This document shows, piece by piece, positions 8,957 through 41,703 of a stretch of 64,000 nucleotides of DNA. A program made the translations under genes and the position numbers. The notes under the pieces were generated by a model. That model had not been told where the DNA came from, made no database searches, and was given only the letters and a program-made list of their open reading frames with translations. How positions within the stretch are numbered: position 1 is the stretch's first letter; every line of letters begins with the position of its first letter. The stretch is from Takakia lepidozioides (Eukaryota > Plantae > Bryophyta): the NCBI GenBank assembly GCA_030704615.1, contig CM060732.1, positions 10,602,001 to 10,666,000 on the forward strand, given 5' to 3'.

Positions 8957-11900
8957 TTAGTAGTCCCAGCCACTGAGAGCTGTACCCAACCTCGTCCTGA
9001 CATCCTTTGGCCAATTTAAGGTGTGCTGAGATGGCACAGCCTCAGACAGCACAGGAATGATGTCAGCCTTACGCACACGAGTAACGCAGGTCAGGGATCT
9101 GGGAGAGGTGTGAAGCAGGTGACCCAGGCCTACACGCTGTTCCCCTTGGCGTACCACAGTATCGACGCTTCTTAGACACACTTGCGCCAACCTATGCAGG
9201 ACAGAGCCACCACCATCATTAAACTCTTTCCTCATAGCTGATGTGCAACTTGCTCAAAAACACCCCAGAGAAATGTCCACACCACACCTCAAAACCAGAG
9301 CTCTAACAATCACAACAGCTGAGCAGTTCATTCCTGGTTTGCCTTTGGCACACAACTAGATGGAGATGGTGGAACCATAGTGACCATGGACATGGCAGCC
9401 ATGAGCACAGTGCCTGGCAGAGCTCCCAAGCTTTGAAATATGGGACACACACTCTACCATGGGAGAGCAGAAGCTTCGGCTATCACCAGACCAGCAGTGT
9501 GTTCCCGCTACTATTCCCTGATCACCCTTCAGAGCCAAGCTCCTCTAAGACTCAACTGTCAACAACCTCCAACCTTCAATGATAGTTCCAAGGAAATTTC
9601 AAGAGCATCTGAAACCACAGCATGGTCACTCAGTTGCTGTGTAAGGACAAGCCATCTACTTACTTGCTTAACTGGGCTTGCGCAGTGCTGCGCAAGCGCG
9701 CGAATGACATCATCCCCTTTAGAATGCATGACACACAGGCACAGCAGCAAGCTCTGTTAATTCCCTCCCAAATTCAGAGAATCCCCCAACCATCAAAAAC
9801 AGCTTCATCAAATGGCAAACATCTTGGCCGTAAAGAGAAAGAGGTAAAAAACGAAGGGAAACGGAGCATGCGACCCCTTCACCACTGTGATCAATAAGAC
9901 ACATGCACAGTCTGTGGGCAGGAACAAACACTTATCAGACACGCTCATCTCAACTCCAACTAGGATGCAGTTCCATGACAACACCAGTTTGCAACACAGT
10001 AAGATAGGATTACCCTTAAGCTTGACCAAGGCAAAGCTCACTGAGTTCAAGGTTCTTAAATTGCAGGCTCGACACAGATATCATGTCTGTCAGCTCCTTC
10101 AAAACTGGGTTGAAAACTTGTACCAGCTGACCAGAGCTAGACCTTTGGCCTCTAAATTTGATAACCGAATAATAAAGACCAGCAATGTTCATTTCTCCTC
10201 TTTCTTTTGCTTCACCTCATTGATAGTCACAAATATGCTGAATCATTGCAATTGTCGATGGCAATGTTGTTAATATTTCAATCTTCCATAGAAGTATGTG
10301 ACAAGATTTTTGAGCTTATGAGGGTTGAATTTTGCTCAAGGCCTGCCGAGTAATATAGGCATTGCAAGCCTCCAGAGGTTTTTTCTGAGAGACGAGATTC
10401 ACAATGTTGATGGCTAGCAAGAGGGGTGGTCTGATGTGAGTGGCTGCATGATATTTGCCTCACCATTACGTCAGAGCACTAAAGCAGCCTCCTTTCCCAA
10501 TAACTTCTGACAGATGCAAGCGCAGGAGATGGCCACGCTCGTGTTTTGACAAAGCAAGGTCTTCTGAAGCATCTACAAGTGCCAAGGAGGCCATGGGTCC
10601 AAAAGTTTCTGCATGGTCAACCATGGTAGACTTGCGTAGCGCTTGTATGAAAGTCTGCACGATGGCATGTAACTGTTCAATATTTGCTACTGATCCTCTA
10701 AGAAGCTCCAAAAATGGTTCATCCAACAGGCAGTTATCTCGCAACAAAGTGATTCCCTACTTCCACAGTTTGGACTCAAAACAAGCGTTCCTTCAACTTG
10801 TAACTTTGGCTCATACCAAGATACCCCATCAGAACCTGCAGGCCTCTACCTACAGGGTATTATTCTGAATTCAGTTTCAAGAAGAAGAAAATCAGCTCTA
10901 CTGAAGCACATGGCAGTACTCAGCAGACCAATCAAAGGCCCTTGCACGTATCCAAAACACCATTAGGTATGGCATCAGATGTGATGAAGAAGCCGTACCT
11001 GAAATGAGGACACGAATGACAGAGACTCCTGGTGACGTGAGTCCTTCTTTTCCATGCCTCGCAACTCCCGCAATTGTTGAGCTATTTCTTGAAGCAGCTT
11101 CATTTCTCCATTCTCTCGCCTCAGAGAATCAATGGTCTGCTTCATCAGGTGCCTATCAGCCTCCAGAGCCTTCAGCCTAAGGGTCAATTGCTCTACATCA
11201 TCTTCCACAGATATCCTGGAGGTGTTCCATCTGATAATGGAGGTTGACTGGAAGTCCCTACTCCCTGCACTCTGATACAAGTCCTCCCACTCTCTGCTAG
11301 TTCCAGAACCCCCAGCAGCCCCATACAAAGCTACCATTGCATCACTCCTTGCAGCTTCAGATTCCTGTTCCCTCATGGCCCTTGTATCAGCTTCCTCCAA
11401 CATCAATAGATCTGGCTTTCCTAGCCTATCTGAATTGGGCTCCTGTCTTTCCAAAGACACCCATCCCTCAGAGTTTCGTTCATCTTTAATGATAACTCCT
11501 GGAGAATCATAGGTTGCATGTTGTACTTCATAAACATCATGCACAAAGGAGGCTTCATCACGAGGATGCTCTGCAATTGACTCACCCTTACCCTTCAGTC
11601 TCGCATACGCTTCTATGTTTTCACCTGCGTTGCCATGGCCAAGCTCATCCCGGCCTTTGGCTTCCGTTGACGATGACGCATTTAAATTCGAATCATCCAT
11701 CTCGAACTCCACAAAGAGTTTTCTCCGCAGCGGATCCTCACCTGTTACCTCAGATGTCATCAATTCCGGTTTTCTTGACGTCTCTGAGCTCATGCCCCTC
11801 TCAGTCCTAGTCTCCGCTTTAGCCCTCGACTCTCCAGCACTTTTTGGCCTCCCAATTTGGACCTGCCCCTTTCCTCCCAGCTGTTTTTCAAATTTCCACA

Positions 11901-13326
11901 CATACTCTAACACCGAGAGCCTCTTCTCTTCCATGGTTCGATCTGCTGAATCTTCCGAGACCGCTGAATCCTTTTGCAAACCCTCACTAGCTACCCCCGA
12001 ATTATCACCAGAGCTCGACCTTCTGTCAAAACTAGTATCCTCTTTTTCCTCCCCTACTTTCTCTCCCTTCCTTATCACCGGCTTCCCAGTTCGCCTCCTT
12101 ATATTTCGTCCAATGTCCAGCTTAACTGATTTATCATCTCTCCTGCTCGGTTGTAACCTTACGTCCTCTCTATTCGGAACAGCTTCTTCTGCTTCACGCG
12201 GTGAAGAGGAGGATGTCCATTTCCAAATGAAATCCATTCCGGGTGAGCTGAGTGACTCCCCCGTCTCATTCCTAGACTGATCCGGAGGTATTGCTCTGAC
12301 AAACTGACCAACGTTCAAATTTTCTGCTTTGGCAATTCTTTCTGAATACCTGACATCTTCTTCACTCGCAATCCTTTCACTCTGGCCCCTCCAACCCTCA
12401 CTTGTAGAACATGAAAGATCCGAGCCGCTAAGTCGTATCTCATCAGCAGAGGGTCCACAAAGCAAAAGCATGTTGCTATCTGCTCTCTGACCCCGATCTA
12501 TCGCCTCAATCTGAGCATTATATAACCGTTGCCTGCAAACTTGAACCTCTTCTTGCAGTGCAAACTTTTCTTCCTCCCGGTTTGCAAGGATTTCCTTCAG
12601 CAGTTCAATCGCCTCTTGATCATACATGGTTTTCTCCTCTACCATTCGGTGAAACTGACGGGCTTCCATCTGCACAGCAGACTTCTCTTCTTGAAGGCGC
12701 GTGATCATCGCCATAGCTTCATTGGCAGCCGTTGCTGAAGCATTCCTCTCCTCCTCCAATTCAAGGTACAGGGCAGCCATCGTCTCACGTTCGGCTTGAA
12801 GAGCTTCTCTCAGCTCTCTGTCTCTGCTGCCATCGCTGCGCTTCCCTACTTGCAATGGGCTGCTATCTTCATCGACTGCTTCGTCTCCAGGCGTGCCATC
12901 GTCTTCCATAGGTAATTCAGAGGGTCCGTTTGGGCCCGTCCAACCCTTGCCGCTCTCCTCGAAGCAGGCCGTGGATAAGTCTGCGTGATTTTTCACCCGA
13001 ACCTTATTGAAAGACCCGTAGGAGGCTTGGTACTCACGGTTTACCTCCAACGGATCCAGATCAAAATAGTCAGGATTTCCGAAGACCAAACTGTCTCCCA
13101 ACACTTTCTCCCTACTTTGTAAGTTTCGCCTGTGATGGCATTCCCAGCAAGAGCAAGGGAGACAAAACCCAGAGATCCGAACGAAATTCGACGTGACAAG
13201 GGCAATCACAGCACTGATAAGCACTAGCAAGGCCAATACCGCATCTGCAAAAGCCTCAAATATCAAACACACCCTCCAAGAATCTGCCCCTATGTGTTGC
13301 TCTAGGCCTCTCCATGCCATCTCCAA
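8957..13326 (-). CDS. GTD-binding (DUF593/zein-binding) myosin-binding protein, MyoB family. Exons 13326-10999, 9716-9664, 9191-8957
   Basis: Has an N-terminal hydrophobic segment with LPCSC and the DUF593 core LREALQAERETMAALYLELEEERNASATAANEAMAMITRLQEEKSAVQMEARQF. The C-terminal coiled coil is LTLRLKALEADRHLMKQTIDSLRRENGEMKLLQEIAQQL. Splices CAG|GTACGG, AAAG|GGGATG (GMMSFARLRSTAQAQLS), AA|GTAAGT and CATAG|GTTGGCG are phase-consistent, ending with VGLGHLLHTSP. Confidence 0.88.
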
Positions 13327-14594
13327 GGTTTGCCCTTCCTACCCACAGTTCGTTTGAAGCATCGCCGGGTGCAAAGGCTTGGGAATTACCAGGGACCTCC
13401 GATAAGGATCCCGCAAATATTACCGGTCTAAGAATTCCTTCTCATACGCAGAAGTATGGAACCGAGCAGCTAAGAGCGCGAAATGGTAAGAAGGATTGAA
13501 CAGGAAACAAGAACCGAACCCCCAATCTCCAGCGCACAACAAGGGAAGTCCTACAAGGGCACTCTCAAACTTCACTGAGCGGGGAGGACGTAAGGCCGAT
13601 CATAGTCTCTCTTCTTTCACAACACGGATCCGCCCTCCCAAAACAAGCAACCGCCCTTTGAGTCAATCTCTCTGCATCCCACCACTCTGCAGATCCCATC
13701 CCTTCTCATCCCGAACCGCTCTCTAAAACCGAGAATGCCAATCCTTCTCTGAACCAACAACCGACCCAACTCACCACCATCCCCACTCTCCTCCTACACA
13801 CCCTCATCTGAAACCCCCATCTTAAGACTACTCAAACCCTCCCCTCCCCCAAACGCTGCCATATTTTCGTCGATTGAGCACAGGCAGAGACCGGAGGGTA
13901 TGACGAGACAGGCTGACTACCTCTCTACAAGAATCCAGGGAGCCTGATGAGTGTCGCTTATATCATCAGCCCAACGACCGCTTCCTCGCACGTGCCAATC
14001 CCCACCCAAATTTCAAATTTGGGCCTATCCACCTTATCCTTGTGGCCCACACTGCCAACCCCACCCTCGCTGCAGGCCGTTACGTCCACAGCGTGTGGGT
14101 GGATTCTTGTGGGGAATGTAAGTAGCCACTATTTTATGAAATCTGTAGAACGACACCACCCACATCCGACATCTCTGCCGAAGTTTTTCGCTGAAGGATT
14201 AGCGCACTAAACTTCCCCTGACTCACTCTACGACTTGTTGTTCAGAGTACCATAACAGAGTCGCCTTGTTGTCCATCTCTGGATTCGGTGAAGGAGGTGG
14301 CATGGTGTAAGTGGGGAGAATCAGCAGTGGAGGAGTGACAACGTCACAGCTGTTATTATAGGCTGAATCAGCGCCATTTTGCAGGCTCCACACTCCAGAG
14401 TCCATACCTGGTGGAGAGGCACACGCATCCATCTGTTATTATTACCACGCTAAAAGCATGTGTCCGCATCATCTAACAGCCTCATCTCTCTTGGAATGCT
14501 TTGTGCACCTTGGAATTCCGAGATATTGAGACTGTGTACCGCCCACGAGCTCCTTGGATACAAATGGGAGACCGGTCAAGCTGCGATTTAGACA

Positions 14595-15055: not shown

Positions 15056-15673
15056 GCCCGAATGCCGCGATGAGATGCTGACTATTTATGTACTAGAGAA
15101 CGCGCCCCCTAGGGCGCATTATGGCTCCTAGTGAGTCACTAGGGCGAGCCCGGGATGCCGCGATGAGATGCTGAGTATTTATGTACTAGAGAACGCGCCC
15201 CCTAGGGCGCATTATGGCTCCTAGTGAGTCACTAGGGCGAGCCCGGGATGCCGCGATGAGATGCTGAGTATTTATGTACTAGAGAACGCGCCCCCTAGGG
15301 CGCATTATGGCTCCTAGTGAGTCACTAGGGCGAGCCCGGGATGCCGCGATGAGATGCTGAGTATTTATGTACTAGAGAACGCGCCCCCTAGGGCGCATTA
15401 TGGCTCCTAGTGAGTCACTAGGGCGAGCCCGGGATGCCGCGATGAGATGCTGAGTATTTATGTACTAGAGAACGCGCCCCCTAGGGCGCATTATGGCTCC
15501 TAGTGAGTCACTAGGGCGAGCCCGGGATGCCGCGATGAGATGCTGAGTATTTATGTACTAGAGAACGCGCCCCCTAGGGCGCATTATGGCTCCTAGTGAG
15601 TCACTAGGGCGAGCCCGGGAGGGCGAGACCTAGGGCGAAGTAGGAGCCATAATGCGCCCTAGGGGGCGCGTTC
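15056..15673. repeat. 93-bp tandem array (6 near-perfect copies) followed by an inverted partial copy; units resemble Helitron 3' ends
   Basis: Units start at ~15056, 15148, 15241, 15334, 15427 and 15520, with a partial unit at 15613. 15641-15673 is the reverse complement of GAACGCGCCCCCTAGGGCGCATTATGGCTCCTA. Each unit contains the palindrome CCTAGTGAGTCACTAGG. Confidence 0.92.
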
Positions 15674-17360: not shown

Positions 17361-17765
17361 ATAAGGAAGATAATAGGCTTAATATAAGAACTTAATGCGA
17401 GTGCGTCAGGACGGTCCAGCCCTGACACCCCGTACCGCCGGCTCTCCGCCTCCAACAGCCATCAAAAGGCAGCCGACTGGGCTCGGTCAATCCCTCCCCA
17501 GCCCCGCTCTCATCCCATCGGCATCGTCGCCCCCAGCGCGTCGTCGTTCTGCGACACCAATCCGCCGCTTCCACTAGTCCGCCAGTTCTCTGTAACCCTG
17601 CACGTCAGCCCCTGTGACCCCCGCCCCGGGTGTAACCCTCGCCCCCAGGTAACCCTCTGTAACTCCGCCGAGTGTAACTCCGCCGAGTGTAACCCTCACC
17701 ACCATGTAACCCTCTGTAACCCATGTAACCCTATGTAGAGTGCCACCGTAGAGTGTCCCCCTCAC
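17361..17765 (+). repeat. Left arm of a long inverted repeat (partner at 36317-36683)
   Basis: AGGAAGATAATAG..AATATAAGAACTTAATGCGAG...CCCTGCACGTCAGCCCCTG...AGAGTGTCCCC is found reverse-complemented, with substitutions, at 36317-36683. Confidence 0.9.
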
Positions 17766-21172: not shown

Positions 21173-24100
21173 ATGGCTGATTGTTATCTGTTCCCTGGAG
21201 AGGCTACTGTTCCATTTTATCACTTGAAGAGGGATGGCGAACAAGTTCGCTTCTGGTACATTGAGCATGAGCATGCTACAATGATCGCGTACTGCTACAC
21301 TAGGTGTAGAGAGGCCAAGGTGGAGGGAGCAAAGGGCCGGCCTAAGTTCAAATGTCCTTACTGTGGGGAAGTAAAGGCAGATAAGAGCAGATTGAATTGG
21401 CATATTGTCGATGGAACGGCCGCATGTATGGTCAGACCAAAAGAAACAAAACCGTTTCCTGATGCGGAGCTCAAGCATGCCATGGCTGTTGAAAATGTGG
21501 TGAATTCTGTTCCAACTTCTTCTGTTGATGCATATCATGCATAGATTCTGCAAAATAGGGTGGCTTTGGGTGGGATTACAGATCCTATTGAAGTGCCTGC
21601 TGTTGTACCTTCTTCGGCTACTTCTGCTACATAGGTTCCATCTTCTAGTGCTCCTGCTATTTCTGTCCCTGGTCCTTTTGTTCAGCAGGTTGAGACAAGC
21701 GGCGATTGAGCCCACCTTTACCTGTCCCTAATGCAAAGAAAATCAACATTGGAAACCGGGGAAACCGAAGCTCAAGGTTCATCTTGCGAAAACGAACTCC
21801 AGGCTCAATCCTTCTGCTAACGCATGGCCTTATTCCTCAGTTCCCATTTCCGAATGTCAATGAGAAGGGGTTTTGGCCGGCATTCCAAGAATTTGTTGCG
21901 CGAGGCGAGGGCGCAGTCCATGCGACAGCTGCAAAATCAAGTTGGGTTCTATCGACGGACAATCAAGTTGGATTCCCTGCCATTTTTTGTTTTTCAAATT
22001 TCGGGCTGTTGTCTATCCGTGTAACCCTTTGTGTAACCCAGAGTGTAACCCACCTACAGAGGACCCATTTTTTAAATCCCTATGGTGTGTAACCCACCTC
22101 TGTGTAACCCTTGTTTCAATCCATGTGTTGTGTAACCCACCTGCCTTGTACACCCTTATACATAAATCTGTCTGCTGTGTAGCCCACCTTCTTTGTAACC
22201 TTTTTTCATGTGTAACCCCTCGTGCTGTAACCCTTTTCTTTGGTGTAACCCCTCACGTTGTATTGCGCAGGGAGCTCGACATCATCTTAGAAGCGATGAT
22301 ATGGACAGTGTTGTTGCTGCCCACAAGACGTTTACAGCCCAGCCGGATCATGGTCTGTTAATGATAGAGGAATTGAATCGGGTGAAGGAGTATTTGGAGA
22401 GCATTGGGCATCCTGACATGCCAAAGCAGAAAAAGAAAAAAAGTGGGAGACTTACACGAGTCCATCAAGAGAGCCAAGCCTCATATGATGATGACACGAT
22501 GGACGAACCAGCTGTTGGCAATACTGACCTTGACAATGCCAAAACTTCAAATCCTCTTGTCATCACTATTACTGTAGATGGAATCGAAGGTTTGGTTGTT
22601 CCAGATCCATTGGAATTCACTCGCGGTTTCGCGGAAGGATTGATCAGCCAAATGGAGAATCTCACCAAACCGCACATTGGACCGCCACCACTCCTTTTGA
22701 GAATTCTGGCCCACAACAATGTAAGAAATCATGGCAGGTCAGTTTCCCAAACACATCCCAGGTTGGGGTTCATGACTGATATTCTAGAAAGTGCTCTTAC
22801 GGCCTCAAAGGTGAAGGACCTGGTCGATGAGTATTACGGCTTTAGTCTGATGTACTTTACACAACCTGGTGACGGAATCGCGACCTTGGATTCTGAGCTC
22901 GAGGACTTAAGATCGAGTTTGAGTACAGAAGAGTGGGGTGGTAGGTCAGTTAAGATCAACGGAGCTATACAGTTTTGCAAGGCAAGCCGTCGTCGCGCCG
23001 CCCATCACTTTGCGATCCATCAGAAAGAATCGTTTATCCAACTTTGGTATTGTGGCCTCTTCAACGAATCACCAACAGAAATGGACTTCAATGCACGTTT
23101 GGGCATCCAGTATATGAGAGACCTTGGGGTCTGTAGTGCCTTGATATCTCTGTAAGTGTTACTCCATCCACTGTCACCCCTCTCGTCCTGTAACCCTCTT
23201 TGTGTGTATTCCTGTAATCAGTGTAACCCTCGCTATGTGGAACCCTGTACTCAGTGTAACCCTCGTTGTGTATAACCATGTAATCAGTGTAACCCTCGGA
23301 GTATGTAACCCTGTAATCAGTGTACCCCTAATGTTACGCCTCGTTGTGTTACCCTAGATGTGTTACCCTCTCGTTGTGTAACTCACTAGTGTAACCCAGG
23401 TAGTGTAACCCATTGCAAACTATTGTCTCTAACAGGGTGGTGTAACCCACATCGTGTAATCCGAACCACTGTCTTGTCCTAGTCAGTGTAACCCTTACAT
23501 AGTGTAACCCTTGCACTTTCAAAAACCTCGTTCCACGACTAAAAACCTTTGTCTTTTCCCCGATGCAGATGAGTCCGAGCTCATGACCAATCAAGTCGCC
23601 AATGCGTTCAAAAAACTTTTTGAGGCTCAACGTGAGCTTCACGTTGTGTATGGGGCCCCTCCACAACGCGATACAGGGGGCGCGCAGACGAGTGATGGGC
23701 CCTCTGTGTTACAGGCTGTGGAAATGGAGGATGAGGAGATGGTTGAACCTCATCTTCATTCAATTTCCGCCCCGCAAAGCGACGATGTACATGACGAGGA
23801 CATCATTCCAAGTCAATCTGCCGTTGTATCTTTGTCGCAGGTTGGTGAATTGTATTCAACCCAGCTGCACTTAGGGGTGAACCTAGCACCTATTGCGGGA
23901 TTTGCCCGTGAATTCTGATACTGATACTGAAGATGATACATCAAGATGGAACACCCAAGTGCGAACCTCTTTGTCCGCAGCCCCAGTCATTTCTTTTGGA
24001 GATCTTAATCGAAGAACCACAGAACCAGCTCCACTCATTCCTTTCCTCGAACCGGGGACCCACTTGACCCAGAGTCTGTGTATGACTTTGAATCTGGAGA

Positions 24101-25400
24101 TGCTGAGTTGAACCCTCCATGCAGCAATGTAAGTATTTGTGAGGATAATGTGGTCAACCTCTCTCAGAATGACACTGTTTGAATGATGCAGACCGAAGAT
24201 CCAAGTCATTTGGCGCCACAACATGTCACATTGGAGGAGGTGGTCAGTATTGAGGGTGACATTGTCCGGGGGATTGAGCAGACAGACAGTCACCCAGCCT
24301 TCGTGGGTCACATTGATGCGGAGGGTGACACTGCAAAGGGAGGAGGCCCTGAAACCGAGGGTTACACTACACCTGAGGGTGACACTACGCAGAGAGGAGC
24401 AACAGGGAAGGAGGGTTACACTGCACCTCAGGGTGACACTGCGGATACCGGTGTGGCTGACACTGCCGTGAGGGACGTTGCCGTGGGTGACACACCATTG
24501 CCCGTGAACACTGCAACTTCCGTTGAGAGTGACAGTGACATGGGTTACATTGGTAGGGGTGACACCCCACAACCAACCCACATGGCAGATGTCCGTGAGT
24601 GTAACACTGCCATGGATGACACTCCACTGCCACTAGTCGTGGAGGGTGACACTCCTTTGCCACGGCCACTAGTCGCGACAGATGACGCTCTTCCGCTAGT
24701 CAACATGGTCTTGGAGGATGACAGTGCGGAGAAGGGCGACACAGTCAAGGATGACATTGAGGAGGTTGATGCAGAGAAGAGTGACATCAACATGGGTGAC
24801 ACGTGGAAGGGTGTCACCGAGGAGGTTGTCATTTGGAAGGGTGACACAGAGCCGGGTCACACTAAGAAGCGTTTCACTGTGGAGAGTCACGAAGAAAGGA
24901 TGTTGCAGAGCATCGTGACACCGAGAAGAGTGACACTGCCAAGGGTGACACTCATAAGGTTGTTACTCAGCAGGGTGACACTGGGAAGAAACCCGATGAG
25001 AAGGGTGACACTGCAAAGAGTGACACTGATAAAGCGGCCAAAGAGAAGGGTGACACTGAAAAGAGTGACACTGAGAAGGTAGCCGAAGAGAAGGGTGACA
25101 CTGAGAAGCGTGACTCTGACAAGGGGTCTGAACAGAAGGGTGACACTGACAAGGGCAGCACCGAGGAGGTGAGTGGTGACACTTCTGCCCTTGGTCAGTC
25201 ACCTCCCTAGCACGTCTCAGACGAGGGAGTGTAGTCATCAGCACTTGCAGCAAACTCAGAACAAGGCACCTCTAGCCCAGAAATTCCCCATATCGGCGGC
25301 ATTGTCAACCCTGGGGTTGCAGAGAATCCCAGGAGGTCAAAATGGCCGCCTGCTCAAAGAAAGCGGTTGGCTGAACCCCCTAGCGCTGACAAGTTTTCAG
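21173..25400 (+). pseudogene. Decayed, apparently spliced TE-associated gene of unknown family: N-terminal zinc-finger-like motif, central globular region, C-terminal acidic EGDT repeats
   Basis: ATG at 21173 and the motif KFKCPYCGEVKADKSRLNWH. Several premature stops. Candidate junctions GCAG|GGAGCT (22271), CTCT|GTAAGT (~23151) and GCAG|ATGAGT (23569) flank TGTAACCC-rich intron-like stretches. 24183-25140 encodes EGDT/EGYT/KGDT repeats. Confidence 0.5.
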
Positions 25401-26441: not shown

Positions 26442-28314
26442 TAAAAGAACTCGTTGTATAGTTGAATACCAATGTCATGAAGGGGGGAATGTATCAAATT
26501 GTACACTTGAAGACTGCAAACAGGGACGATGATTACAAGTCAATTCGAAGTCTGCAAACTGCATGACTCAATGAAGTATGCTACTTACTACTTCGTGATA
26601 TTTGCCCACGCCACTACATAGTGAAACTGCAAACTGTTTTGAGCTCTAGGTCCAATATTTTGCCAATATCAAATGGACACATGTTCACATATGACAAGTG
26701 CTTCGTTAAAGATAGATGGATGAGGTCATCCAATGGATACCCATTCATGTATATGCCTTAAGATGCCACATGTACTGATGTAATCATAGAAACAGAGATG
26801 TGAAACCTCTAGTAGTCATGTAGTCATAAGCTTATATGACATGTCATCAATGTGTGGTAGTGGTGTAGTCATTTAGTCATAAGCTTATGTGGCACGTGTC
26901 TGACGTGTAGTATTGCGTATGACTACTAGTTATATAAACCAAGCCTATGTTCTTGGTCAACATTGTTTGACCGCGGCTCCTACATTAGATTAAAATATAT
27001 TAAAATTCGCCCAACAATGGGTTTCATCATTTTGTAGTCACACATATAGTCATGATTACCAAGGTTTATATCACCCGTAGTCATAAAAACGTTAATCTTT
27101 AGTAGTGTGCTGCTGGACAACGTCAACCTCGGAGATCCCTGCACTTTTGCCTTTCGATTTGGTTCGCTGTTTTTTGGGTGCGACAAGAACAGGTACTTGC
27201 ACGACTGTTTGAACTCACCTCTCTAATGCTTTGCTTTTCCTGATATGCCATAGGCTTGCCATGACAGCTTGGTCAAGACGAAATAAATCTGTCTGCTTGT
27301 GGATATTGGATTGCAAGATTGCCACCACAAGTAAGCGATGTGTATGATATGGTATAATTGCAGATCTTCCACCACAACCAAGTGGTGTAAGTATTTTACT
27401 CGTGAAATAGCTTTGAACCACCAAAAACCTCCCATGTTGGTCACAGTCGACTGGAATTCTTTAATTTTGTTTTGTGGTTAGGGCAGGGTGAAGGCAGACT
27501 TGGGGTAGTATTGCTCATGAAGGGCACATCCATACATTGGTATGGAGGCTATGATGACAGCCATAGCCTGACATTGTAAGATTTTGGCAGAATTGCAGTA
27601 CAACAATGTGATAGCGGGTCATTTTCCTGGAGATGAGAGGAAAAAACTAGATAAGATTATGATTCAATTGCAAGCTAGAGAGGGGGTGGGGAGCAAGCCA
27701 ACTGATGTTCCACTGGGATGGTCTTACAGGTCTCTCAACAATCTGACCACTCAATGGCGACAACAGATGCGAGCGATTCAGAGTGGTAGAAGGGGTGAAG
27801 ATGCACAGGGCCAGGTTTGCAGGATATTGCTATGCATGCCATCCCGTCTACAACTCTACAAAGGGGCAAAGAATTGATAGGATCAAAGCGTGAATTGTAC
27901 CAATATCAGTCTGGATATTGCCCTGGCGTAGATGTATGCCAAATGTAGCAATATGTTGTTGTAGTTGAAGCTAGACAAAGGCCCAAGGATGTGGGTATGG
28001 GATTTTTTTGATATAGGGATATTACTGCAGGTTGCCAGCGATGAAATCAGTGCTAATAGTTGCACACTGGAAGATATTAGAAGAGTAGAATGGTGAAGTG
28101 CCAGACTGGGTCACTTCCCAACTTTTGGGTGCCAATGTTTTACAATCTGGATATGAATAAATGGCCCTACTAGTGGCCAATCCACTAGTGCTTGATCACA
28201 ATAGCTTATAGCATGGAGGAATTGTGAGCATATTTGAATATCAATGTTCATTGACAGTTGATACCCAAAAAAATGTGACTACATGGGGACAGAAGAGTAT
28301 ATTTATTTGGAATG

Positions 28315-29260
28315 ACCAGTGCCACTCCTGGTCCACCTTGGTCAGCTTGGTTAGAGCCTTTGCAATGGCACTAAATCCCTTAACAAACCGTCTATAATAG
28401 TTTGCTAACCCCATGAAAGCTCGAACTCGGCTCACATCCGTGGGGCGTGGAACCTGTGCAATGGACTCTACCTTAGTCTGCTGTACCCCCAATCTTCCAA
28501 GATATATCATGTGACCCAGATACTCAATCTGGTTGTGGAAAAACTTGCACTTTCCCGGATGTAACTTCAATCCGTGCGCCCTCAAGTGCTCAAATACCCC
28601 CTGAAGGTGTCTCTCATGCTCTTCCACCGTAGCACTAAAGATGATGATGTCATCTATGTAGCACCGAGCAAACTCCACCCCTGCTAGAATCCTATCCATG
28701 ACTCTCTGAAACTCTGCCGGAGCGTTCTTAAGCCCAAATAGTAAGAACCGCCACTGGTATAGGCAATCATTCCCGTGCTCATTGATCCCCCATAATGCCG
28801 TCTTTTGCTTATTCGCCTCCTTGATCGGCAACTGGTGATATCCGGATCGTAAATCCAACGTGCTAAAGACCTTGGCATGCCCAATGGCATCAAAGATCTC
28901 ATTTGGTGTTGGCATGGCATACCTATCGGACTTGGTCTGACGATTTACAGGCCGGTAATCACCGCACATACGTCTCTCCGTCCAATTACCAAAGACATCC
29001 TTCTTGGCTGGCATCACTGCGGCTGAAGCATACTCTCTCCCAGATAGCTCCACCAAACCAGCCTCCCAAAGGTCCTGAGTTCTCATCTGAATCAAGGACC
29101 TCTCCATGTCACTGTATCTATAGGGTTTCCGAAAGATTGGTGTGTCAGTAGCCAATTCAATGCGAATCTCTTGACCCTTCAGTGCTCCTAAGTCCTTCAA
29201 ACTGAAGGCAAAGCAGTTCCTGTAAGCCCTCAAGAACCGCCGTATACGTCGTCTCTCTCC
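28315..29260 (-). pseudogene. pol: Ty3/Gypsy reverse transcriptase (3'-truncated)
   Basis: RRMCGDYRPVN, VFSTLDLRSGYHQL, LFGLKNAPAEFQRVMD, CYIDDIIIFS, KCKFFHNQIEYLGH, VRAFMGLANYYRRFVKGFSAIA. Confidence 0.95.
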
Positions 29261-29669
29261 TCCGGTGACTATAGGTCTAACATCAGGCTCCCAGTTGTCC
29301 TCCGTGACTGCAACCTTGAGTCCAGCAGGCTTAGAGATAGAAGACGCGTCCCGTGGTTGCTATGCTGCAACTTCTTGAGCAGTGACCACTGCCTCTCTGT
29401 CAGTGACAATGTCTCATCTTGCCCCATCATCCCATCCTTGAGGACCTCCTCAATCCGAGAAGAATTCCCAACCTGATCCATCACCGCTGCCTTGGCTGCC
29501 AACTCCTTCTGAACCTCGAGCACCTCCCACGTGTGCCATGGATGCGGCGTGCACCTCGTGATCCTCACCTGCTTGCCCCCACTCGCTGCCTGTACCATCT
29601 CGGTAGGCAGGGAGACCATGAAGGGAAGTGTACTCCGTACTCTGCGCTGCTCAGCCATAGCCAAGCTGA

Positions 29670-30610
29670 TAATCTAGGTCAAGCAATTGAGATCCATTGC
29701 TTGCCCCAACACCTGACGACGTGATGCCTCAGAAAGAGATGACACCGCCGTGGTACCTGTGGTAAAACCCATTGCCCGTTTGCGCTCGTCAGCATTGGGC
29801 TCCACTAATTGTTGCAACTGGCTATCCCACAAGAGGCCAGGTCCACCATCCCGAAAAGCATGGGATCCTGGGAAACTGAGCAGTGTAGGTAATGCTGCTC
29901 GTGGTTGACACACCCTGTTGACCACTGCCAAAGACAAACGGTCATCGTGTCTCACACATTGAGACTGCCTCCCTTTGTCCAAAATGCTATCCACTGTGAG
30001 GTGTGCTGGCCGCTGCACCCCATCAAATGTACGCTTGAGCAGTGCGGGTTGCATCAAGTTAGTCCACCATAGCCGTGGACGATGAGCCCATGACCCCACT
30101 GCAGCTGCATCCAGCAACACTGCCGACCCAAGCCACGACCGGACATGATGCACACTGGCCATCACCCTGGCCCGAGAATCACCCATCAGTGGCACATTCT
30201 CTAAGATGTATGCTGGAGATACAGCTTGATGAAGCTGCAAGTGGTGCAAAATCCGCACCATCTCCCAAAACAGACCCGTCCTCGAGTCTCGCAATCCATT
30301 GCCATGCCTGGCTGATGAATGCCCTTGGCAGGGCCAACTTGCCACTACCAGATCAATGGAGCCAACCCGCTCCAAATCTTGCGCCCCCAGCAATGAAATG
30401 TCTGCTGGCAAGGCTTGTTGGTATCCACGAACTGCAGACACTGGCAACAAATCAGGGTACTGCTGTACCAACTGAGCAACATGGCGCAGTGAGACGCGTC
30501 GTGCAGTCTCATCCCTCTCCACATACAGGTAACGTCAAACTCGTACACCTGCCTGCAGTACTGCAGCCAATCCAGTGCTGATCCCGCCAAACAAGTCCAG
30601 AAGACATATG
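29670..30610 (-). pseudogene. DNMT3-like DNA (cytosine-5)-methyltransferase domain within pol
   Basis: Motif I ICLLDLFGGISTG; motif II YVERD; motif IV DLVVASWPCQGHS (catalytic PC); TGLFWEMVRIL; motif VI YILENV; motif VIII DAAAVGSWAHRPRLWWTNL; motif IX ERKRAMGF; motif X RRQVLGQAMD. Motifs are in canonical order. In-frame stops lie at 30535-30537 (TGA) and 29674-29676 (TAG). Confidence 0.93.
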
Positions 30611-30989
30611 CCTTCATCCGGGCACTGCCACACAAGAGGTGTGGTGTCCAATGGCGACAACTGAGGTGGTCCTGGTGCAATCACCGCACTCTCCTCTTCT
30701 CCTGACGGTACGAAGGCCTCTACCCAGGCTTGTTGTACCCGTCCATCAGCAGCCTGCTGCAAATCCTTGCTCGTACTCCATAATGGAGTGTGAGCAACCA
30801 TGGCAGGCAACTCCGCCGTACCATGCATGTCATCCTGCTCTGCTGGAGGTGGCACATCCTCTGCATGGGCATTGCCTTCCAGCAACTCTCCAGGCCAACT
30901 AACTGCAGCTGTAAAGGCGGCTAGTATTGGCATCTTGCCCCGCTGGGCAGCCGCAATACCCCCAATGAATGTCACAGGGAGCTGTGCAC

Positions 30990-31350
30990 GACGACCATCC
31001 CCTGACTGCCATCCAGGCCTGTAGGATGCTGACTCCTCCCAAAAGTCCAGGGTAAAGCCCATGGGATATAACACTACCCCATCAACAAGGACATTGTAAG
31101 AGACCGCGTCTGTCACAATGGCCTTGGCTCGCATCACTGAGCCATCTACATGATGATCTGGTTGTAGTCCAATGACCAACTCACGCCGTGTCATGCCCCG
31201 AGCCTGCTCTGATCCTCCTAGAGATGTATGTATCTGAAAAGGACAAGGCTCCATATCCGCCTCCATGAGGCCCAAACCTGCAATAGCAGCTCTGCCCAAC
31301 ATCAGTGGCTGAGCTCCTGAGTCCAACAAGACCCACAGTGGCCGGTACTT
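30990..31350 (-). pseudogene. Retropepsin-type aspartic protease domain
   Basis: WVLLDSGAQPLMLG active-site motif, followed by YNVLVDGVVLYPMGFTLDF, the typical C-terminal D/G-hydrophobic segment. Confidence 0.8.
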
Positions 31351-32269
31351 CTTGCCTGCCAGTCCACTCAAAGTGAAAATGCCTCCCTGGTTGTCTAACA
31401 AGACAACTCCAGGTGTCACCATGGCCCGCTCAAAGGTTGACCTAGCTGGCAGCTCCGTCAACCTGGCAGCTGCAGCTTGCCATGGCGCAGCCGTGGCAGT
31501 CTTGACCCTCAAATCCGAGGATCCCTCTGCCACTACACCTTCCAGTAACTCCGCAGAAGATGAAGTGACCTCCCCACTGTCGCAGAGTGTTGCTGCTAGT
31601 CTGAACACTGCAGCTGGTCTTACCCCCGGCATCGCAATCATGGTTGCCGAGAACAGTGGGGCTTGACACACAGAGGTGGCTGCCCCCAATAACACACTGG
31701 CTGCACTAGCCTTGGTAGCAGGTGTCAGTGTTGCACGTGTAGCTCTCCCCAATGGCATAGTAACCTCCGCCTCGGTAACAATCGGGCGAGAACTACGTGC
31801 CATGGATGGCGTCGACACTGTCTCCGCCAATGTGAATGACTGAGGAAGCCTCGCCTGACGGCTTGCCTCCCCATTCTGTGGATCCAATTCCACCTCTGCA
31901 CCTCGTGGCTCAGGAACTCGTGCTGCTCCTCGAGTCACGGCTGCAGCAGACTCCACCTGCACTAGTGGTAGTGCTGCTCCGCACATGAATCCCATGCCTT
32001 CCATATCTCCTCCCTTAGGAGCAGGAGGTGGACCATCCCGCCTGGGAGCCGGTACCACCTGAGCTGTAGCCATGGCAGCGAGCCTTTGCTCTAGCTGCTG
32101 AAGCCGGTTGGCCATGTCTTGATCAACACCCTGACCTCCGCGTCCTTGGCCATGTTGAGCTTGCCCTTGGCCTGCACCTCGTGCCCGACCACCTCGTCCT
32201 CTCTGGGCTGGTCCACCTCGCCCCCGGCCACTATTGTTCCCTTGGAAGTGGCCTGGGCGCAACTCAGGG

Positions 32270-33350
32270 TGCAAGTCATAACACTGGGCATCTCCATGCC
32301 CATACTTGCCACAATGCCCACACTGCTACTGTGCAGGCTGTGCTTGTGCCGGCCTTCTGCCACTCTCTGGGCAATCTCTCTTGACATAGGGTCCTCCAAA
32401 TGTCCAACATATCACCCCTGGTTGCTGTTGGCTTGCAAAAGATGCCACGGGCCTCTGCACCTGAGGTCCCATGTAAGCTCCATGGAACTTGGGTTGGGCA
32501 ACCTTGCCCCCCTGACCACGCTGTTGGGCAGTCCCTTGTACCTGTTGGCTGGCAGCTGCACCTCGTGCAGGCATGTCCTTGCCAAATCCAATGGTAACAA
32601 CTCGCTCCTCCACCATGTTGAGCTCAATCCGCTCAGCCAGCAGAAACACATCCGCTAATGTGGGTTGGGCTGCTTGTAACAGGGTTGCATCCCGCACCCT
32701 TCTCTTGAGCTCCTTGTCCAAAATTCCATACCAGAACTGGACTGCCTGAGCTTCAGTAACCCCTTGGGTCACACTTATCAAGCGCCTCATACGAGTGTAG
32801 GCCTCTCGCAAGCTCTCACTGGATTTGCGCTGGAAGTCTTGCAAACTTCGCAGCTTCTCTGTCCGTACACCTTGGTAGTTCTCCGCAACTCCTGGAAGAA
32901 CTCCACCACCGGGTTGAATCTAGGCACATGTGTTGTAATTGTGGCAGGAGGAGTAGTAGCACCTTTTGAACTGGTACCACCTGCAGAAGTGCCGCCACTA
33001 CTTGTTCCACTACTAGTGCTTGTAGTTGGAGATGTTTGTGTAGCTGCTGGTGTCACCGCTGCCCTTGTGCCTCTAGTGATTGAGACATAGTTAGGTGACC
33101 AATACTCTCGCCACTCCTCAATCTCCACCGCATGTCCCCGCCTAAATTCATGGTAATCATCCATGGGCGGCCCCTCAAGGTGCTGGAATAGCCCCTTCCA
33201 CGCCATAAAGGGCGTAAACAGTTGTGGATTGCGCATTTGCTGCAAATCACACCAACTGTCAAACTCTTGTATAAAGTCATCAAGCTCGATGGTGCCCACA
33301 GCTCCAGAGTACCTACGTGGCCCCTTGGTAGCTCCATACATCTCCTCCAT
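32270..33350 (-). pseudogene. gag: Gag of the DNMT-bearing Gypsy (frameshift near 32870, stop at 32326)
   Basis: ELDDFIQEFDSWCD...LFQHLEGPPMDDY and LQDFQRKSSESLREAYTRMRRL...QAVQFWYGILDKELKRRV are retrotransposon gag-like. Knuckles: CWTFGGPYVKRDC (degenerate) and CGHCGKYGHGDAQC (CCHC). Confidence 0.8.
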
Positions 33351-34307
33351 CGTGTCCCACAACAATGGCACGGAAATGACTTGCACCCTCGGCGAGAATC
33401 CTCCTGACTCCGAGTCTGAACCTTCCTCAAGAAGACACTGAAGGTGAAAGTGGCCTAAACCGCACACCTTGTCTTGTGTACCCACTAGTATCGCTGGTGC
33501 TTGTACCGGCACTCCCCTCAGCAGCTGGTGGCACCTCCGTGATGAAAACTCACAACCCAACCGGTTGTCAACCTGTCTCTAATCCCCACTTTCTACAAGG
33601 TAACCGGGTAAAGAACCTGTTGCGGCTACTGGTTCAAGCAGGAATAATAGGTTTCTAACGTAGACCTGTACCTGCACCTGCATCCACCGCAAGCACTCCT
33701 ATGGTCTGCTGGTCATCAACCCAGCCTCACCATAGAAGAAACACTGGTGGTCTTGCTGGTCATCACTCCAGCCTCACCACCGACACATACTCTAGGATTG
33801 GCCGGTGATCAAATCCGGACCAACCTCCTATGAAAACAAGCGCCCACACAAAGCTAACATGGCGCACAGTCAAGCATGCAGGTGTGGAGGGGATCCAAAC
33901 ACAAGGAAATCAAGACAACAACTCCCCCACACCAAAAACACTCCACAGTGTCGCTCCTGCAAGGACACCCCAGCCCAAACCCGGACTGACTCTTGCCTCC
34001 ACCTACGGAAAGGTTTTGGCCTACAGAGAGGGTGAAAGACTATGGAGAAGAGAAACTAAAGCAATTCCTAACCCCAGAATGCTCTCATCCCACCACTCTC
34101 CCTCCTGTCTCTATCCACTCGCTTGTATGGCCGTGGCAAGTATCCTTCAATATCCCTCAATCAATCCTTCAAGAGCTCTTCAACATTGTCCACCAAAGCT
34201 CCTCGAAGGGTCCTCCAAGGACCCCAAAGATCCTCCAAATATTCCTCCAAGGGCCTTCCAAACAATCCTCCAAAGGCCCTTAAATTTCACTAAGTCCTTT
34301 CACTATT

Positions 34308-34660
34308 GATACCTTAACAGAGGTATAGTCTGAGGTTGTTAGGGTCCCTTATGTTGATGATACCTTTACAGAGGTATAGTCTGAGGTTGTTAGGGTCCCT
34401 TATGTTGATGATACCTTTACAGAGGTATAGTCTGAAAATGAGGGTTCTGTTTGGTATACTAACAGAGGTATAGTCTGAGCTGATTAGGGTTCCACATATG
34501 GTGATACCTCAATAGAGGTATAGTAAAATGGACAAGCTCCTGTTTGGTATACTAACAGAGGTATAGTCTCACATTAGGGTTCACATATGGTGATACCTCA
34601 ACAGAGGTATAGTCAAAGGGACAAGCTCCTGTTTGGTATACTAACAGAGGTATAGTCTGA
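34308..34660. repeat. Tandem array of 8 units (43-51 bp) sharing the core ACAGAGGTATAGT
   Basis: Cores at ~34318, 34369, 34420, 34463, 34513, 34556, 34602 and 34645. The first two units are identical; the later ones alternate between two types. Confidence 0.85.
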
Positions 34661-36316
34661 GCATACACTACTAGGGTTTGTAATGAAGAGCTAGAATGCA
34701 AGTCCTTGACTTCTATGCTTCTACTCAAGCAAAAATATGGTCTCTAGGTGGTCATAAGAGGCATCTTCTTGCTCTCTTCCACCCCAATGTGCAACCAAGA
34801 GTGGTCCAACTCAACTTGCAAGTCATTGTCCACCAAATCAATCCCCTTCTAGTCCTTGGGATTTGATTGCAAACTACCATATCTCCATTGCCGAGCAATC
34901 ATGCATTTGTCTCCTCATCACTTGACAATTGCTCCAAATCAACACAAATTATCTCAATGTGTAGGAGCAATGCTTGTCACTTACAATAATGCTCCCAAGC
35001 AATCCGCCTTGGATCCCACTCTCACGCCATATGCCTCATTTGGGGTCTTGCACCAATCCATCATCCATGTGCTCCCCGTGGTCATTTGAATGCATGTTTC
35101 ATGACCTCTTGGCCTATGTGTTGCTCTCCTTCATCATAACATGAATCAACACCTCTCCACTTCACACACAAATGGATCTCAAAGGCCTTCACCTCTTGCT
35201 AGTTCAAGAGATCCCCTTCTCAAACTTGAACTTACAAACTCAAGCGAGCATGCTCCACACATGCACCACTTGCTTGGTCAACTATCCACCACAAAGCTCG
35301 CACTACCAAGAGCATGAATAGCCAAGTATTGCCTCCCCCTCTTGTCACATTACATAGTTAGGGTGAAGCTATGCATACATTGAATGATGATTTCCCTTCA
35401 AGGATTTCCCACCACATGTTCTCCAAGCCCTTCCAATGGCACCCTAAGCTTGGCTCCACAGCACCATGATTGGAAGATTTCTTCACATATATAGCTCCTT
35501 GGCTTCTCTTCCACAACATCCACACTTTGAACTTGCTTAACCCTAGCTTGATAGTAAAATGAGCACTAACAAGCCTTTAGTCACTCTCCACAAGCCATGG
35601 CGCACACCATCGACTCCATAATGCATACAAAGGATTCTCAAACCTTAGAATCCATGCTTCCACACACACAAGACTTCCTCCTTACAATCTTTGCAAAATC
35701 TTGTGACTCAAGAGCTTTCTTCTCAAGCTCTCCAACTCCTTGGTGCATGCAATACTCGAGCACCTTTCCTTGCAACCCCTTGCAAGCTTTGTGATACAAG
35801 AGCTAAATTCTCTTAGCTCTCAACCTCTTTAAAATACAAGTGCAAAACTAATCCTTACACTCCGCACTCACAAGCATAAGATCATCTTCTTGTAGTGATA
35901 AGAGATGAGAAATGAGAGAAGTAGAAGACAATGAAAGCTCTCAAAGCATGAAGCAATCATATGAAGAACAAGCCCTAGTCCTTCCAAGTGAAATCCACTC
36001 TATCATATAAACTAAGTCAAGCCAAGGGCACCTTTGCTAAAGGAATCCACCCTACAAAGCCCTCAACACACTCCCTCTCAATACCTAGAGCTATGGAGGT
36101 GAGAGAAGCTCATGGAGGCTCAACTACAAGAAGATGAGCCTCCTCAACACTCACAAGGGGAAAACCTATCTCCATGTCTCAAGTGAGGCTCGACACCTCA
36201 CTTGGCATGTGAGACCAAATGAAGTCCCAACACACAAAATATAAATATAAATATCTAAAATGTCCTAGTTAACTAGAAGTAGGTAATTCTAGATAACCAT
36301 GACTAAAACCATGACA
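34660..36316 (-). mobile_element. Highly degenerate LTR-retrotransposon-derived segment (possibly Copia-like, non-autonomous)
   Basis: Begins TGTCATGG on the minus strand exactly where the right inverted arm is cut off (36316/36317). Shows strong strand skew, no long ORF and a weak KTPNEAYG integrase-like remnant. Confidence 0.35.
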
Positions 36317-36683
36317 AGGGGGACACTCTGCGATGACACTCTAGAGAGGATTACATGGTGGTGAGGGTTCCACTTGGCGGAGTTACAGAGGGTTACATGG
36401 GGGTGAGGGTTACAGGGGCTGACATGCAGGGGGTTACAGGGAACTGACGGACTGGTGGAAGCGACGGATTGGTGTTGCAGAACGATGATGCAGGCGGCGA
36501 CGACATGCCGGGGGCGACGACGCCGATGGGATGAGAGCGGGGGTGGGGAGGGATTGACCGAGCCCAGCCGGCTGCCTTTCGATGGCTGCCGGAGGCGGAG
36601 AACCGACAGTACGGGGTGTCAGGGCTGGACCGTCTTGATGCGCTCGCATTAAGTTCTTATATTATTTCTATTATCTTCCTATT
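36317..36683 (-). repeat. Right arm of the long inverted repeat (partner at 17361-17765)
   Basis: Reverse complement of the left arm. The incidental ORFs at 17395 (+) and 36649 (-) are near-identical (MRxxQDGPALTPRTxGSPPP). Confidence 0.9.
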
Positions 36684-39100: not shown

Positions 39101-41145
39101 GATGTCTTTGCCGTGCTGTAGGAGATACTTACTAAAGTGTTTTTCGAACTCTACCTCTTCCCTTTGTCCATCTCACTTGGCTTCAGCGTGCAAATACCTT
39201 CTAAGAGTAATACATCGGTCGTTCTCAAACAATACAACTTTCAAGGAGGCTGCTAGTAAAATGTGTGGCCGTCTTTTAGAGAGAGATAAAAGATAAAGTA
39301 TTAGGGAAGGGTCATTCCCATGGCCTTGTAGTGTGATTTCATGTAACAAAAATTCTTGACTTAGAGCATAGAAGGGCCCTGTATCTGCAAATGTGGGGGG
39401 GTACTAACCAAGACTCTAAAGCTGTGAGGGTTGGAGTGTTGAAAACCCAGATTGCAAGGTTCACTGCAGGGATGAATAAGTTCACTTCATGGAAGAGTAA
39501 ATTCATACATGGATGAATAAGTTCACACATGTCGTCTTGCTTGTTGGACTTGGTTCGAGTGCGATCTGCCATAGCTCGACAAGCTATTGAGCTTGTTAGG
39601 TATACAGCGGGGCACCGATGAAGCTCAAGGGAAAGAGGGAGCGGTGCTGGCGGTTTCATAATGGATCGGTAATTGATGACAGAATGTTCTAAAAACAGCT
39701 GAGGACCTGTATTTTGTTTAAGGGCATACCAGGCTTATCCATAATGGTGGGAGAGAGTGCCTGAGAGTTATGAGGATGTAGTGAGGTTTATCTAGCAATG
39801 GGGGCGGCAAGAGCTGAAGGTTATGAGACCTGGAGGTGAACAATTGCTACTGGAGCAGCAGCAGCGGTGACGGCGTGAGCAATGGGGGCGGCAACGCTGA
39901 ATGTTATGAGGCGTGGCGGTGAGCAATTGCTACTGGAGCAGCAGCAGCGGTGACGGTATGAGCAAGGCGGTGGCCGCAGTGACGGACAGCTCGACAGCAT
40001 GGGGGAATGCAGACTGGGAAGATCTGCAGTAAGACATAGTATTTAGTCATTGTATGACAGGTGATTCTTCCTTCATTTTAGCTGTGACTTTGGACAAAAG
40101 ATTGGAGAAAGACTTGGCAATGGCCCCAGGAAAGACTTGAAAAATTGGGAAATGAAGCTGTGGCAGAGTCGATTTGTACCAAGATGAGCAGTGTCTGTGG
40201 GGTTTGGGTCCTTGAATGCACTATGCTGCAGCAGAGAGAGAGAACGAGAGATGTTGTGGTGAAGTGGGGGTTGGATTTGGCTTGAATTCTGTAAAGTAGG
40301 GCTTGCTGAACAATGACCTGCAATCTGAAGTGTTCTTTGTTTATTGGCTGATGCACGAACGTGATATGGTCTTTTTATGAAGAGTGCACCCCCCAGGATG
40401 GCAATAATGTCCAGATAATTCATGCTTGTCAACTCTCGACATCTCACTAACCTTGTTGTTGTGATGTTGACCTTGTGATGTGCCTGCAGGACATACACCA
40501 CACTGGCCAATGCAATCATCATCAACAGATAAGAACTGTCCTAGTGAACAACTGGGGAAAGATAAAATAGATAGGGAGGTCTACATTTGCTTTCTTTTCC
40601 GCCGCAGTAGGGGTAGGTCTGGTCTGTACTCTGGTCATGACTAGTTAAGCTAGGGAGTAACACAACTTGGGCTCTAGGCCATTTCTTTTGGTATCAGAGC
40701 TTTGCCTTTCCATGGCATTGTCTCTACTTTAGCTAGATAGAATTCTGACTGAAAACAGTCATGGCAGGAAGAGATCATACCTTTATACCTGATGGGCCTA
40801 GTATAGGAGACATCCTAATTTGTTTTACTAGAAGAGCTGTTGATGCATAGGCATAGCCACTGTTGTATTTCTTCAATCATTCGTGGAGATTGTATGATGG
40901 GGATCTCTGTCTTAGGGTGATCCATGCAGGGGGTAGAAGCAACATTGCTTTGTGGGTTAGAGAAGATGATAGATGGCAGAAGGTGAATACTATGGCTAGG
41001 GAAGTAACGTGGGGAGGAAGAGTGTGCGAAATGGGCTGTGGGAATGGTATCGAGGACAACATTAGGCAAGGTCTTAGCTTAATTAGAAGTTAGAAAGTAG
41101 AACCATAGTTGAAATTGCTTAGATAGGACGTTAGAATCGTGAAAC

Positions 41146-41667
41146 TATGACAAGTCCAAAGGTTATCAGTGCACCCTTTGCTGGTTGAGAGAGTGAGGAT
41201 GTTAATGACTGGGTAAGCGTATCCAGATGGAAGGAGATGTGCAGGATCTCACTCCTGATAAAATGTTTAAAGTAGCACGGTTGAACTTGAGGGGGAAGGC
41301 AGATGAATGGTACAGAAAACAGAATCCTAAACCAGACAACTGGCCTGATTTTCAGGTAGCGATTACAGCTAAGTTTGGTGTCATAGATATGGCAGAAGCT
41401 AAGCTGAAAATGGATGCTATCAAACAAGAGAATAGCCTGCAGAGGGTGCAGCCCTACTTTGATAGGCTGAACCGACTATTTATCAGAGGGGGAATCTCAG
41501 ACCTAGAGCAAAGAAAAAGGTTTGCTGGAGGGCTGAGACCTGAAATTGCTCGTGTAATGCTTGGGAGACGTTTTACTTCTGTAGATGAGGCTGGAGACAG
41601 CCATAGAGATCGAGAGAGGTCTTTGCAAGCTAGGAGAAACCCCTTTGGAGCCATTGGAAGAACTTGA
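41146..41667 (+). pseudogene. gag: Retrotransposon gag (frameshifted)
   Basis: VARLNLRGKADEWY...WPDFQVAITAKF...KMDAIKQENSLQRVQPYFDRLNRL...RFAGGLRPEI is a retrotrans_gag pattern. Confidence 0.85.
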
Positions 41668-41703
41668 GGGACCAGTGACTCTGAAACAGATGAGCAGGAA
41701 GAA

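Follow-up and report, generated by a model that had tools for sequence, protein, structure and literature searches.

A highly repeated Ty3/gypsy family of land plants with a DNMT3-type methyltransferase and a likely readthrough stop before its reverse transcriptase

Retrotransposons that carry the enzyme used to silence them have been described in dinoflagellates and in one charophyte, and its role in them is open. The same question is posed by a 64,000-nucleotide stretch of the Takakia lepidozioides genome (GenBank assembly GCA_030704615.1, contig CM060732.1, positions 10,602,001 to 10,666,000; hereafter the window, in whose numbering positions are given), the minus strand of which contains a Ty3/gypsy element with a cytosine methyltransferase (MTase) domain between its protease (PR) and its reverse transcriptase (RT). 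Is the MTase a regular part of this element, in which protein product is it made and on what does it act? On balance we favour the view that the window copy stems from a highly repeated family whose first open reading frame (ORF1) encodes Gag, protease and a DNMT3-type MTase, that RT, RNase H (RH), integrase (IN) and a PHD finger are likely produced through readthrough of a UAG-CARYYA stop, and that the enzyme would be packaged at the level of Gag and would methylate the new DNA of the element.

The window copy itself is a dead, truncated member of a Ty3/gypsy family with the order gag-protease-MTase-RT, dead because it has three stops and two frameshifts and lacks RNase H, integrase and a 3′ end (Table 1). 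Much as the initial annotation had proposed, a single minus-strand frame (32919-29269), interrupted by stops at 32328, 30537 and 29676, links gag, two zinc knuckles, the protease (LLDSGAQ) and a full-length MTase; of gag, however, the frame holds the C-terminal half, the N-terminal half (33350-32880) being in another frame owing to a second frameshift near 32880, where other copies show a one-base length difference. The stop at 30537-30535 breaks the MTase domain between motifs I and IV, and that at 29676-29674 lies directly behind it. From the C-terminal half of gag to 29431 the translation is 53% identical to Mp4g09160 of Marchantia polymorpha over 1165 residues, and a 29-nt stretch of the leader is 93% identical to that of a relative, L012. 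Pfam searches bore out the MTase (PF00145, E 2.8e-11) and the RT (RVT_1, PF00078, E 1.3e-29, on the ORF 29359-28244), but gave only weak matches for gag and protease (E 0.04-0.06). At 28316 read depth drops several hundred-fold, and 41 contigs of sequencing run X1 and one of X9 continue past this point with other sequence. The gag-PR-RT order in the window, with RNase H and integrase downstream of RT in the relatives L001 and L012, fits the Ty3/gypsy order GAG-PR-RT-RH-INT. Paired long terminal repeats (LTRs), a primer-binding site and a target-site duplication of the window element, whose 3′ end is missing, were not found among the window repeats (best 20 of 38 direct-repeat families); the window copy, L001 and L012 all come without the full termini in which a DIRS-like arrangement of repeats would show. 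Both ends of the L012 contig are an identical 127-nt sequence, and hence its termini are collapsed.

The MTase is DNMT3-type in sequence and in predicted fold, as first thought. Its motifs (FGG, PCQ, ENV, HRPR and LGQAMD, which we take to include motifs I, IV, VI, VIII and X) stand in the canonical, non-permuted order, with the catalytic Cys, the Glu and the RxR present. Its best solved relatives are DNMT3A/B, both in a single-sequence search (E 1e-11) and in a profile search (E 1e-25, versus 3e-16 for DRM, 1e-9 for DNMT2 and 8e-10 for M.HhaI). An AlphaFold model (predicted local distance difference test score 92.4, predicted template modelling score 0.91) has the DNMT3A-DNA complex 6f57 as its top Foldseek match (E 3e-19; template modelling scores 0.72/0.80), and all 32 Foldseek matches listed are DNMT3A/B/C entries.

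The MTase is a fixed part of a highly repeated family and not a one-off capture. Summed over 28203-34273, depth in run X1 reached 4e5-1e6, compared to about 2.2e3 in the adjoining flank, with 9.1e5-1.05e6 in the MTase bins, 8.2-8.7e5 in the RT bins and a comparable depth in gag; summed contig depth is not copy number, and we use it solely to show a repeat family, one that retains the MTase, since depth is similar in the MTase and RT bins. Runs X1 and X5 each cover the element together with its flanks, and a 5009-nt contig from a second organism, with 92 differences, extends across MTase and RT and beyond the cut at 28316. One run, presumably of RNA, has contigs on parts of the element, but these carry no information on expression. 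A library search with the MTase returned 225 proteins at E < 1e-30. Among the matches listed (where the non-appearance of ferns, lycophytes and hornworts carries no weight), the close relatives are from M. polymorpha (73% identity), M. paleacea (71%), Calypogeia (67%), and Sphagnum and Riccia (65%), and the distant ones from Scenedesmus (45%), Haematococcus (39%), Klebsormidium (38%) and Closterium (37%). An additional retroelement domain accompanies the MTase in 205 of the 375 proteins examined: the MTase follows the protease or precedes RT in 49, its position is compatible with a second order, RT-RH-MTase-IN-PHD, in 156, and the remaining 170, mostly short, show the MTase alone. The expected protease-MTase-RT order recurs, unbroken in L012 and also in the Klebsormidium and Closterium elements. 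Five Marchantia genes (Mp4g09160, MpVg00370, MpVg00540, Mp5g06330 and Mp5g06860) are unbroken gag-PR-MTase ORFs of 1278-1281 residues with a common tail. In an MTase tree (LG+G4; unrooted, lacking host DNMT3 and sampling about a third of the second-order proteins), the window sequence falls in a clade of 12 with liverwort and moss sequences (support 100/100), and its RT groups with those of Marchantia, L001, L004 and L005 (Shimodaira-Hasegawa-like approximate likelihood ratio test, SH-aLRT, 97). The proposed persistence of such a Gypsy lineage in land plants is therefore upheld, with relatives annotated in liverworts and peat mosses and a moss-like gene neighbouring the window copy.

How the RT is reached appears to differ from what had been supposed, namely a single frameshift. 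The RT frame opens behind a conserved in-frame TAG CAA CCA, and the frameshift in the linker before it looks like damage specific to the window copy, because contigs of three of four runs (best-supported rows) differ by one base at 29394. We compared seven junctions at the DNA level (window, L001, L003, L004, L005, L009 and L012). In 7/7 the same place is taken by a stop that shares the frame of the RT leader, TAG in five and TAA in two (L003, L005); the hexamer behind it is CARYYA in 5/7, four of these following TAG, and CAACCC in the other two (L001, L003). Across the junction stretches CARYYA followed 6 of 1,820 stop triplets and five of the six are the junctions, for a background of 1/1,815. 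In the unbroken L012 the only stop between gag and integrase is a single TAG CAA TCA, which separates ORF1 from a 1047-residue RT-RH-IN-PHD frame. The tail after motif X measures 88-94 residues in nine bryophyte-clade proteins and 98-143 in a sister metagenome clade. Seven single folds, made without a shuffle control, gave no evident common RNA structure 3′ of the junction stop. UAG CAR YYA is the type I readthrough signal of tobacco mosaic virus (TMV), for which plants show readthrough of 6-10% (stable lines) and 32% (transient assays), according to the part of the source available (PMC2754532). From these sequences, the MTase likely closes ORF1 (Gag-PR-MTase), with RT, RNase H, integrase and PHD made through TMV-type readthrough. 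At the end of ORF1 the enzyme would be made at the Gag level rather than the Pol level, so that packaging with Pol, as envisaged in the initial annotation, is not supported for an MTase that ends with Gag and protease ahead of a stop bearing a readthrough signal.

Ten metagenome loci were found, of which five were left out of the junction count: L006, L007, L008 and L010 have phage- or bacterial-type MTases, and L002 duplicates L001 and ends before the junction. A scan of viral contigs gave one locus, a phage MTase. L012 (positions 1-9285), an eukaryotic-type element, sits in a record titled cyanobacterium, and P0174 and P0478 are filed under bacterial metagenome-assembled genomes; binning contamination is likely in each case. 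Another repeat has inserted twice into L001 (2438-3077 and 4811-5457), one copy lying within the MTase-RT linker. On the Marchantia V sex chromosome there are several members of the Mp4g09160 cluster (MpVg00370, 00480, 00540 and 00690).

In the mechanism that we favour, most ribosomes would make Gag-PR-MTase and a minority would read through into RT-RH-IN-PHD, at a frequency that, with TMV as a guide, may lie between a few and about 30 percent. The protease would release the MTase inside the particle, where it would methylate the new cDNA, probably at CG by analogy with the SymbioDIRS-Dnmt3 enzymes of Symbiodinium, and the element might gain protection of its cDNA or a pre-set chromatin state at the insertion site. 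Methylation of cDNA is proposed on the grounds of the published SymbioDIRS activity and of the proposal of its authors, who, in the part of their paper available, report de novo CG methylation in yeast by two SymbioDIRS DNMT3s (de Mendoza et al., 2018; PMC5890265). CpG depletion (0.33-0.62 in the element) is no sign of self-methylation, being as marked in a gypsy element of the window without MTase (0.28) and in a host gene (0.62).

Several observations weigh against this mechanism. In L001 and L003 the stop is followed by CAACCC and, two codons on, by an ATG, which is equally compatible with reinitiation. The junctions are not independent, and the seven amount to about five lineages because L004/L005 and L001/L003 are related pairs; the presumed Marchantia junction is placed from protein ends only. 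MTase and RT are fused in one ORF in Closterium and some other relatives, and the stop is therefore not required throughout the group. The MTase trees contain no host DNMT3. Constraint on the MTase in five of six pairs (dN 0.24-0.55 against dS 1.8-3.0, dN/dS about 0.08-0.30, where dN and dS are nonsynonymous and synonymous divergence) speaks for the mechanism, but dS is near saturation, and the sixth pair, L001 and L003, has a dN/dS of about 0.7. Finally, the KnitGypsy-Dnmt3 enzyme of Klebsormidium gave no methylation in yeast, a result that its authors call inconclusive (PMC5890265).

The layout could be as described and the target another: the MTase may be active and modify RNA or chromosomal DNA, be it at the insertion site, in competing elements or in integrated copies of the element itself, and not particle cDNA. 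Synthesis at the Gag level would presumably far exceed the need of one cDNA, and a chromatin reader, the PHD finger, forms part of the element. Proteins of retroelements that are fused to Gag are expected in the particle, however, so the fusion predicts packaging, and the fold match to DNMT3-DNA complexes, far weaker for DNMT2, also speaks against such a target. Host-side and RNA roles are listed as open in the available text of de Mendoza et al. (PMC5890265). We hold such a target to be rather unlikely.

We consider it unlikely, too, that the same element expresses its second frame (ORF2) through splicing, or through reinitiation downstream of the stop, either of which would still leave the MTase in a Gag-level product. 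Besides the ATG and the changed final hexamer base of L001 and L003, this would find a parallel in the plant LTR groups with a GAG-PROT ORF apart from the remainder that are reported in the part of the REXdb survey available (PMC6317226). Against it, CARYYA is kept and an ATG behind the stop is absent in the window copy, L004, L005, L009 and L012, and in L003 and L012 the stop is in frame with both ORFs.

It is improbable that the domain persists without catalysis, in a structural or DNA-binding role: the inactivity of the Klebsormidium enzyme in yeast would suit it, as would ECQ in place of PCQ in many relatives (12/48 proteins with the window order, 95/155 with the second order), but motif I is kept in 224 and P/E-C-Q in 197 of 228 full-length domains, the motif VI Glu and the first motif VIII Arg are invariant in 22 aligned sequences, and the bryophyte clade has PCQ. 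A one-off capture of a host gene, a nested insertion, a chimeric contig or algal contamination is largely refuted, with next to no probability left to it, for although no contig among those listed bridges the 28316 junction and the flank, the same domain order recurs in many independent relatives, the MTase shares its 100/100 clade with sequences from liverworts and mosses, both the element and its flanks are represented in runs X1 and X5, and moss proteins match the host gene (10978-13338) along its entire length.

The second order is present whole (RT-RNaseH-MTase-integrase-PHD) in 86/375 proteins, for example P0460, P0133 (Haematococcus), P0023, P0503 (Scenedesmus), and the chlorophyte relatives have the MTase between RNase H and integrase. 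The second-order MTases form one side of a branch with support 100/98, and their RTs one side of a branch with SH-aLRT 99. In P0142, from Cymbomonas tetramitiformis, no RT was detected between the protease-like motif, the MTase and the integrase; it is labelled second order in the tree, although its order is ambiguous. The Klebsormidium MTase lies outside the RH-MTase-IN group, its place among the remaining rows being unresolved in the unrooted tree. As the trees are unrooted and without host DNMT3, one capture with relocation and two captures are not told apart. Tentatively, one DNMT3-carrying, PHD-tipped Gypsy lineage may have existed in green plants since before the chlorophyte-streptophyte split, its MTase having moved between the RNase H-integrase slot and the Gag-protease end; the bryophyte readthrough stop would then load particles at the Gag level so that new copies arrive methylated, and young Marchantia copies would constitute a transposon-encoded pathway of de novo methylation, which may extend to the host genome whenever silencing fails. 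No chlorophyte Gypsy-DNMT3 elements were mentioned in the literature covered, in searches not aimed at them.

Table 1. Coordinates in the window of the parts of the MTase-bearing element and of the nearby host gene
Feature	Positions	Strand	Evidence or remark
Upstream tandem arrays (unit lengths 51, 89 and 43 nt), not certainly part of element	34307..34662		Intermediate depth
5′ leader of element	33351..34273	-	High read depth up to about 34273
gag, N-terminal half, frame differs from remainder	32877..33350	-	59% identity to Marchantia Mp4g09160 residues 1-148
gag, C-terminal half	32590..32877	-	PF03732 weak, E 0.044
Two CCHC zinc knuckles, first decayed, stop 32328-32326 between	32281..32409	-	Translation; other copies differ at 32327
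Aspartic protease, LLDSGAQ	31000..31344	-	Profile of relative and window copy; Pfam weak, E 0.04-0.06
DNMT3-like C5 cytosine methyltransferase domain	29677..30618	-	Profile from relatives, Pfam, structure match
Linker closing ORF1, holds frameshift of window copy	29363..29673	-	Comparable tails in relatives
TAG CAA CCA, amber stop and CARYYA hexamer, in frame with RT	29354..29362	-	Junction comparison
ORF2: RT leader and reverse transcriptase (YIDD), open up to truncation	28316..29359	-	PF00078, E 1.3e-29
3′ truncation; RNase H, integrase, PHD and 3′ LTR absent from window copy	28315..28316		Contigs diverge, depth drop
Host GTD-binding (myosin-binding, PF04576) gene	10978..13338	-	15 kb from element

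Elsewhere in the window, the best named matches of the GTD-binding gene are moss proteins (34-38% identity over 97-98% of its length), with liverwort proteins matching over 13-22% only, which marks the host as likely a moss. The gypsy element without MTase (39280-44913) has gag at 41209-41664 and RT at 41668-43044, with no protease detected; its direct repeats, about 4.9 kb apart and 97% alike, are likely its LTRs, and one in-frame TGA, without CARYYA, stands between its two ORFs. There are also a degenerate 10-nt satellite (17364-19910) with a related inverted block (36317-36680; 183 nt, 90%) 17-19 kb away, a 93-nt tandem array (14964-15707) with inner copies 99% alike, and ORFs that match no Pfam family (22199-25210), among which five-residue GDT-type repeats run from 24183 to 25210.

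Unbroken gag-protease-MTase ORFs in M. polymorpha, a tractable model for which methylation mutants exist, are filed as hypothetical genes, so that self-methylation can be put to a direct test in a land plant; from the readthrough layout, in turn, a measurable MTase:RT ratio is expected. Annotation is affected as well: such models may wrongly be counted among host DNMTs, and gene calls lose or mis-splice ORF2. The available text of de Mendoza et al. (2018; PMC5890265) describes KnitGypsy-Dnmt3 in Klebsormidium only, and three supplementary files of that paper do not mention Marchantia. A 2025 paper and a 2026 preprint (10.64898/2026.05.21.726589) mention such elements in 'streptophytes', with no land plants named in the parts available, and their supplements may hold bryophyte sequences. 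The words 'methyltransferase', 'methylase' and 'PHD' had no match in the accessible text of the REXdb plant LTR survey (PMC6317226), and no description of DNMT3-Gypsy elements in bryophytes or of the CARYYA site was found in the literature searched, mostly at listing level and with many subscription papers outside it.

Among known systems, described here from the parts of the sources available, the closest is KnitGypsy-Dnmt3 of Klebsormidium nitens (PMC5890265), likewise Gypsy-type with an intronless, non-permuted DNMT3-like domain in its coding region. The K. nitens protein GAQ93235.1 has the same CCHC-protease-MTase order, is 38% identical and ends 21 residues past motif X. The paper places this MTase in the Pol ORF, whereas in the window family it ends ORF1 before the CARYYA stop; GAQ93235.1 too ends after the MTase, however, so the 'Pol ORF' wording may cover the same layout. 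KnitGypsy-Dnmt3 also differs in its charophyte host and reported DIRS-like repeats, the window family having a land-plant host and, in L001 and L012, a C-terminal PHD. The SymbioDIRS-Dnmt3 elements also bear a DNMT3 and theirs are the only such enzymes in PMC5890265 shown to methylate CG de novo, but they belong to the DIRS class, have a tyrosine recombinase and, according to that paper, arose by a separate capture. EpiLTRs/DAM-LTRs (bioRxiv 10.64898/2026.05.21.726589) are likewise LTR elements with a DNA methyltransferase and a chromatin reader, but their C5 enzyme is sister to DNMT4 and accompanied by a DAM domain and a chromodomain, and DAM-LTRs are reported absent from streptophytes. The host moss enzyme PpDNMT3b (PMC6453930), compared by description only, has a non-permuted DNMT3 catalytic domain as well and differs in being a host gene. 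As regards the stop, TMV (UAG-CARYYA; PMC2754532) and the leaky-stop elements Tca2 and VdLTRE5 (PMC3441728) also have an in-frame stop ahead of the polymerase frame; in Tca2 and VdLTRE5 it lies between gag and pol and is without CARYYA, whereas the window family has its stop between MTase and RT, followed by the hexamer, in which the likeness is to TMV. The window family extends the known KnitGypsy-Dnmt3 kind to land plants, with a likely readthrough layout, which would put the enzyme in the Gag-level product, as the new part.

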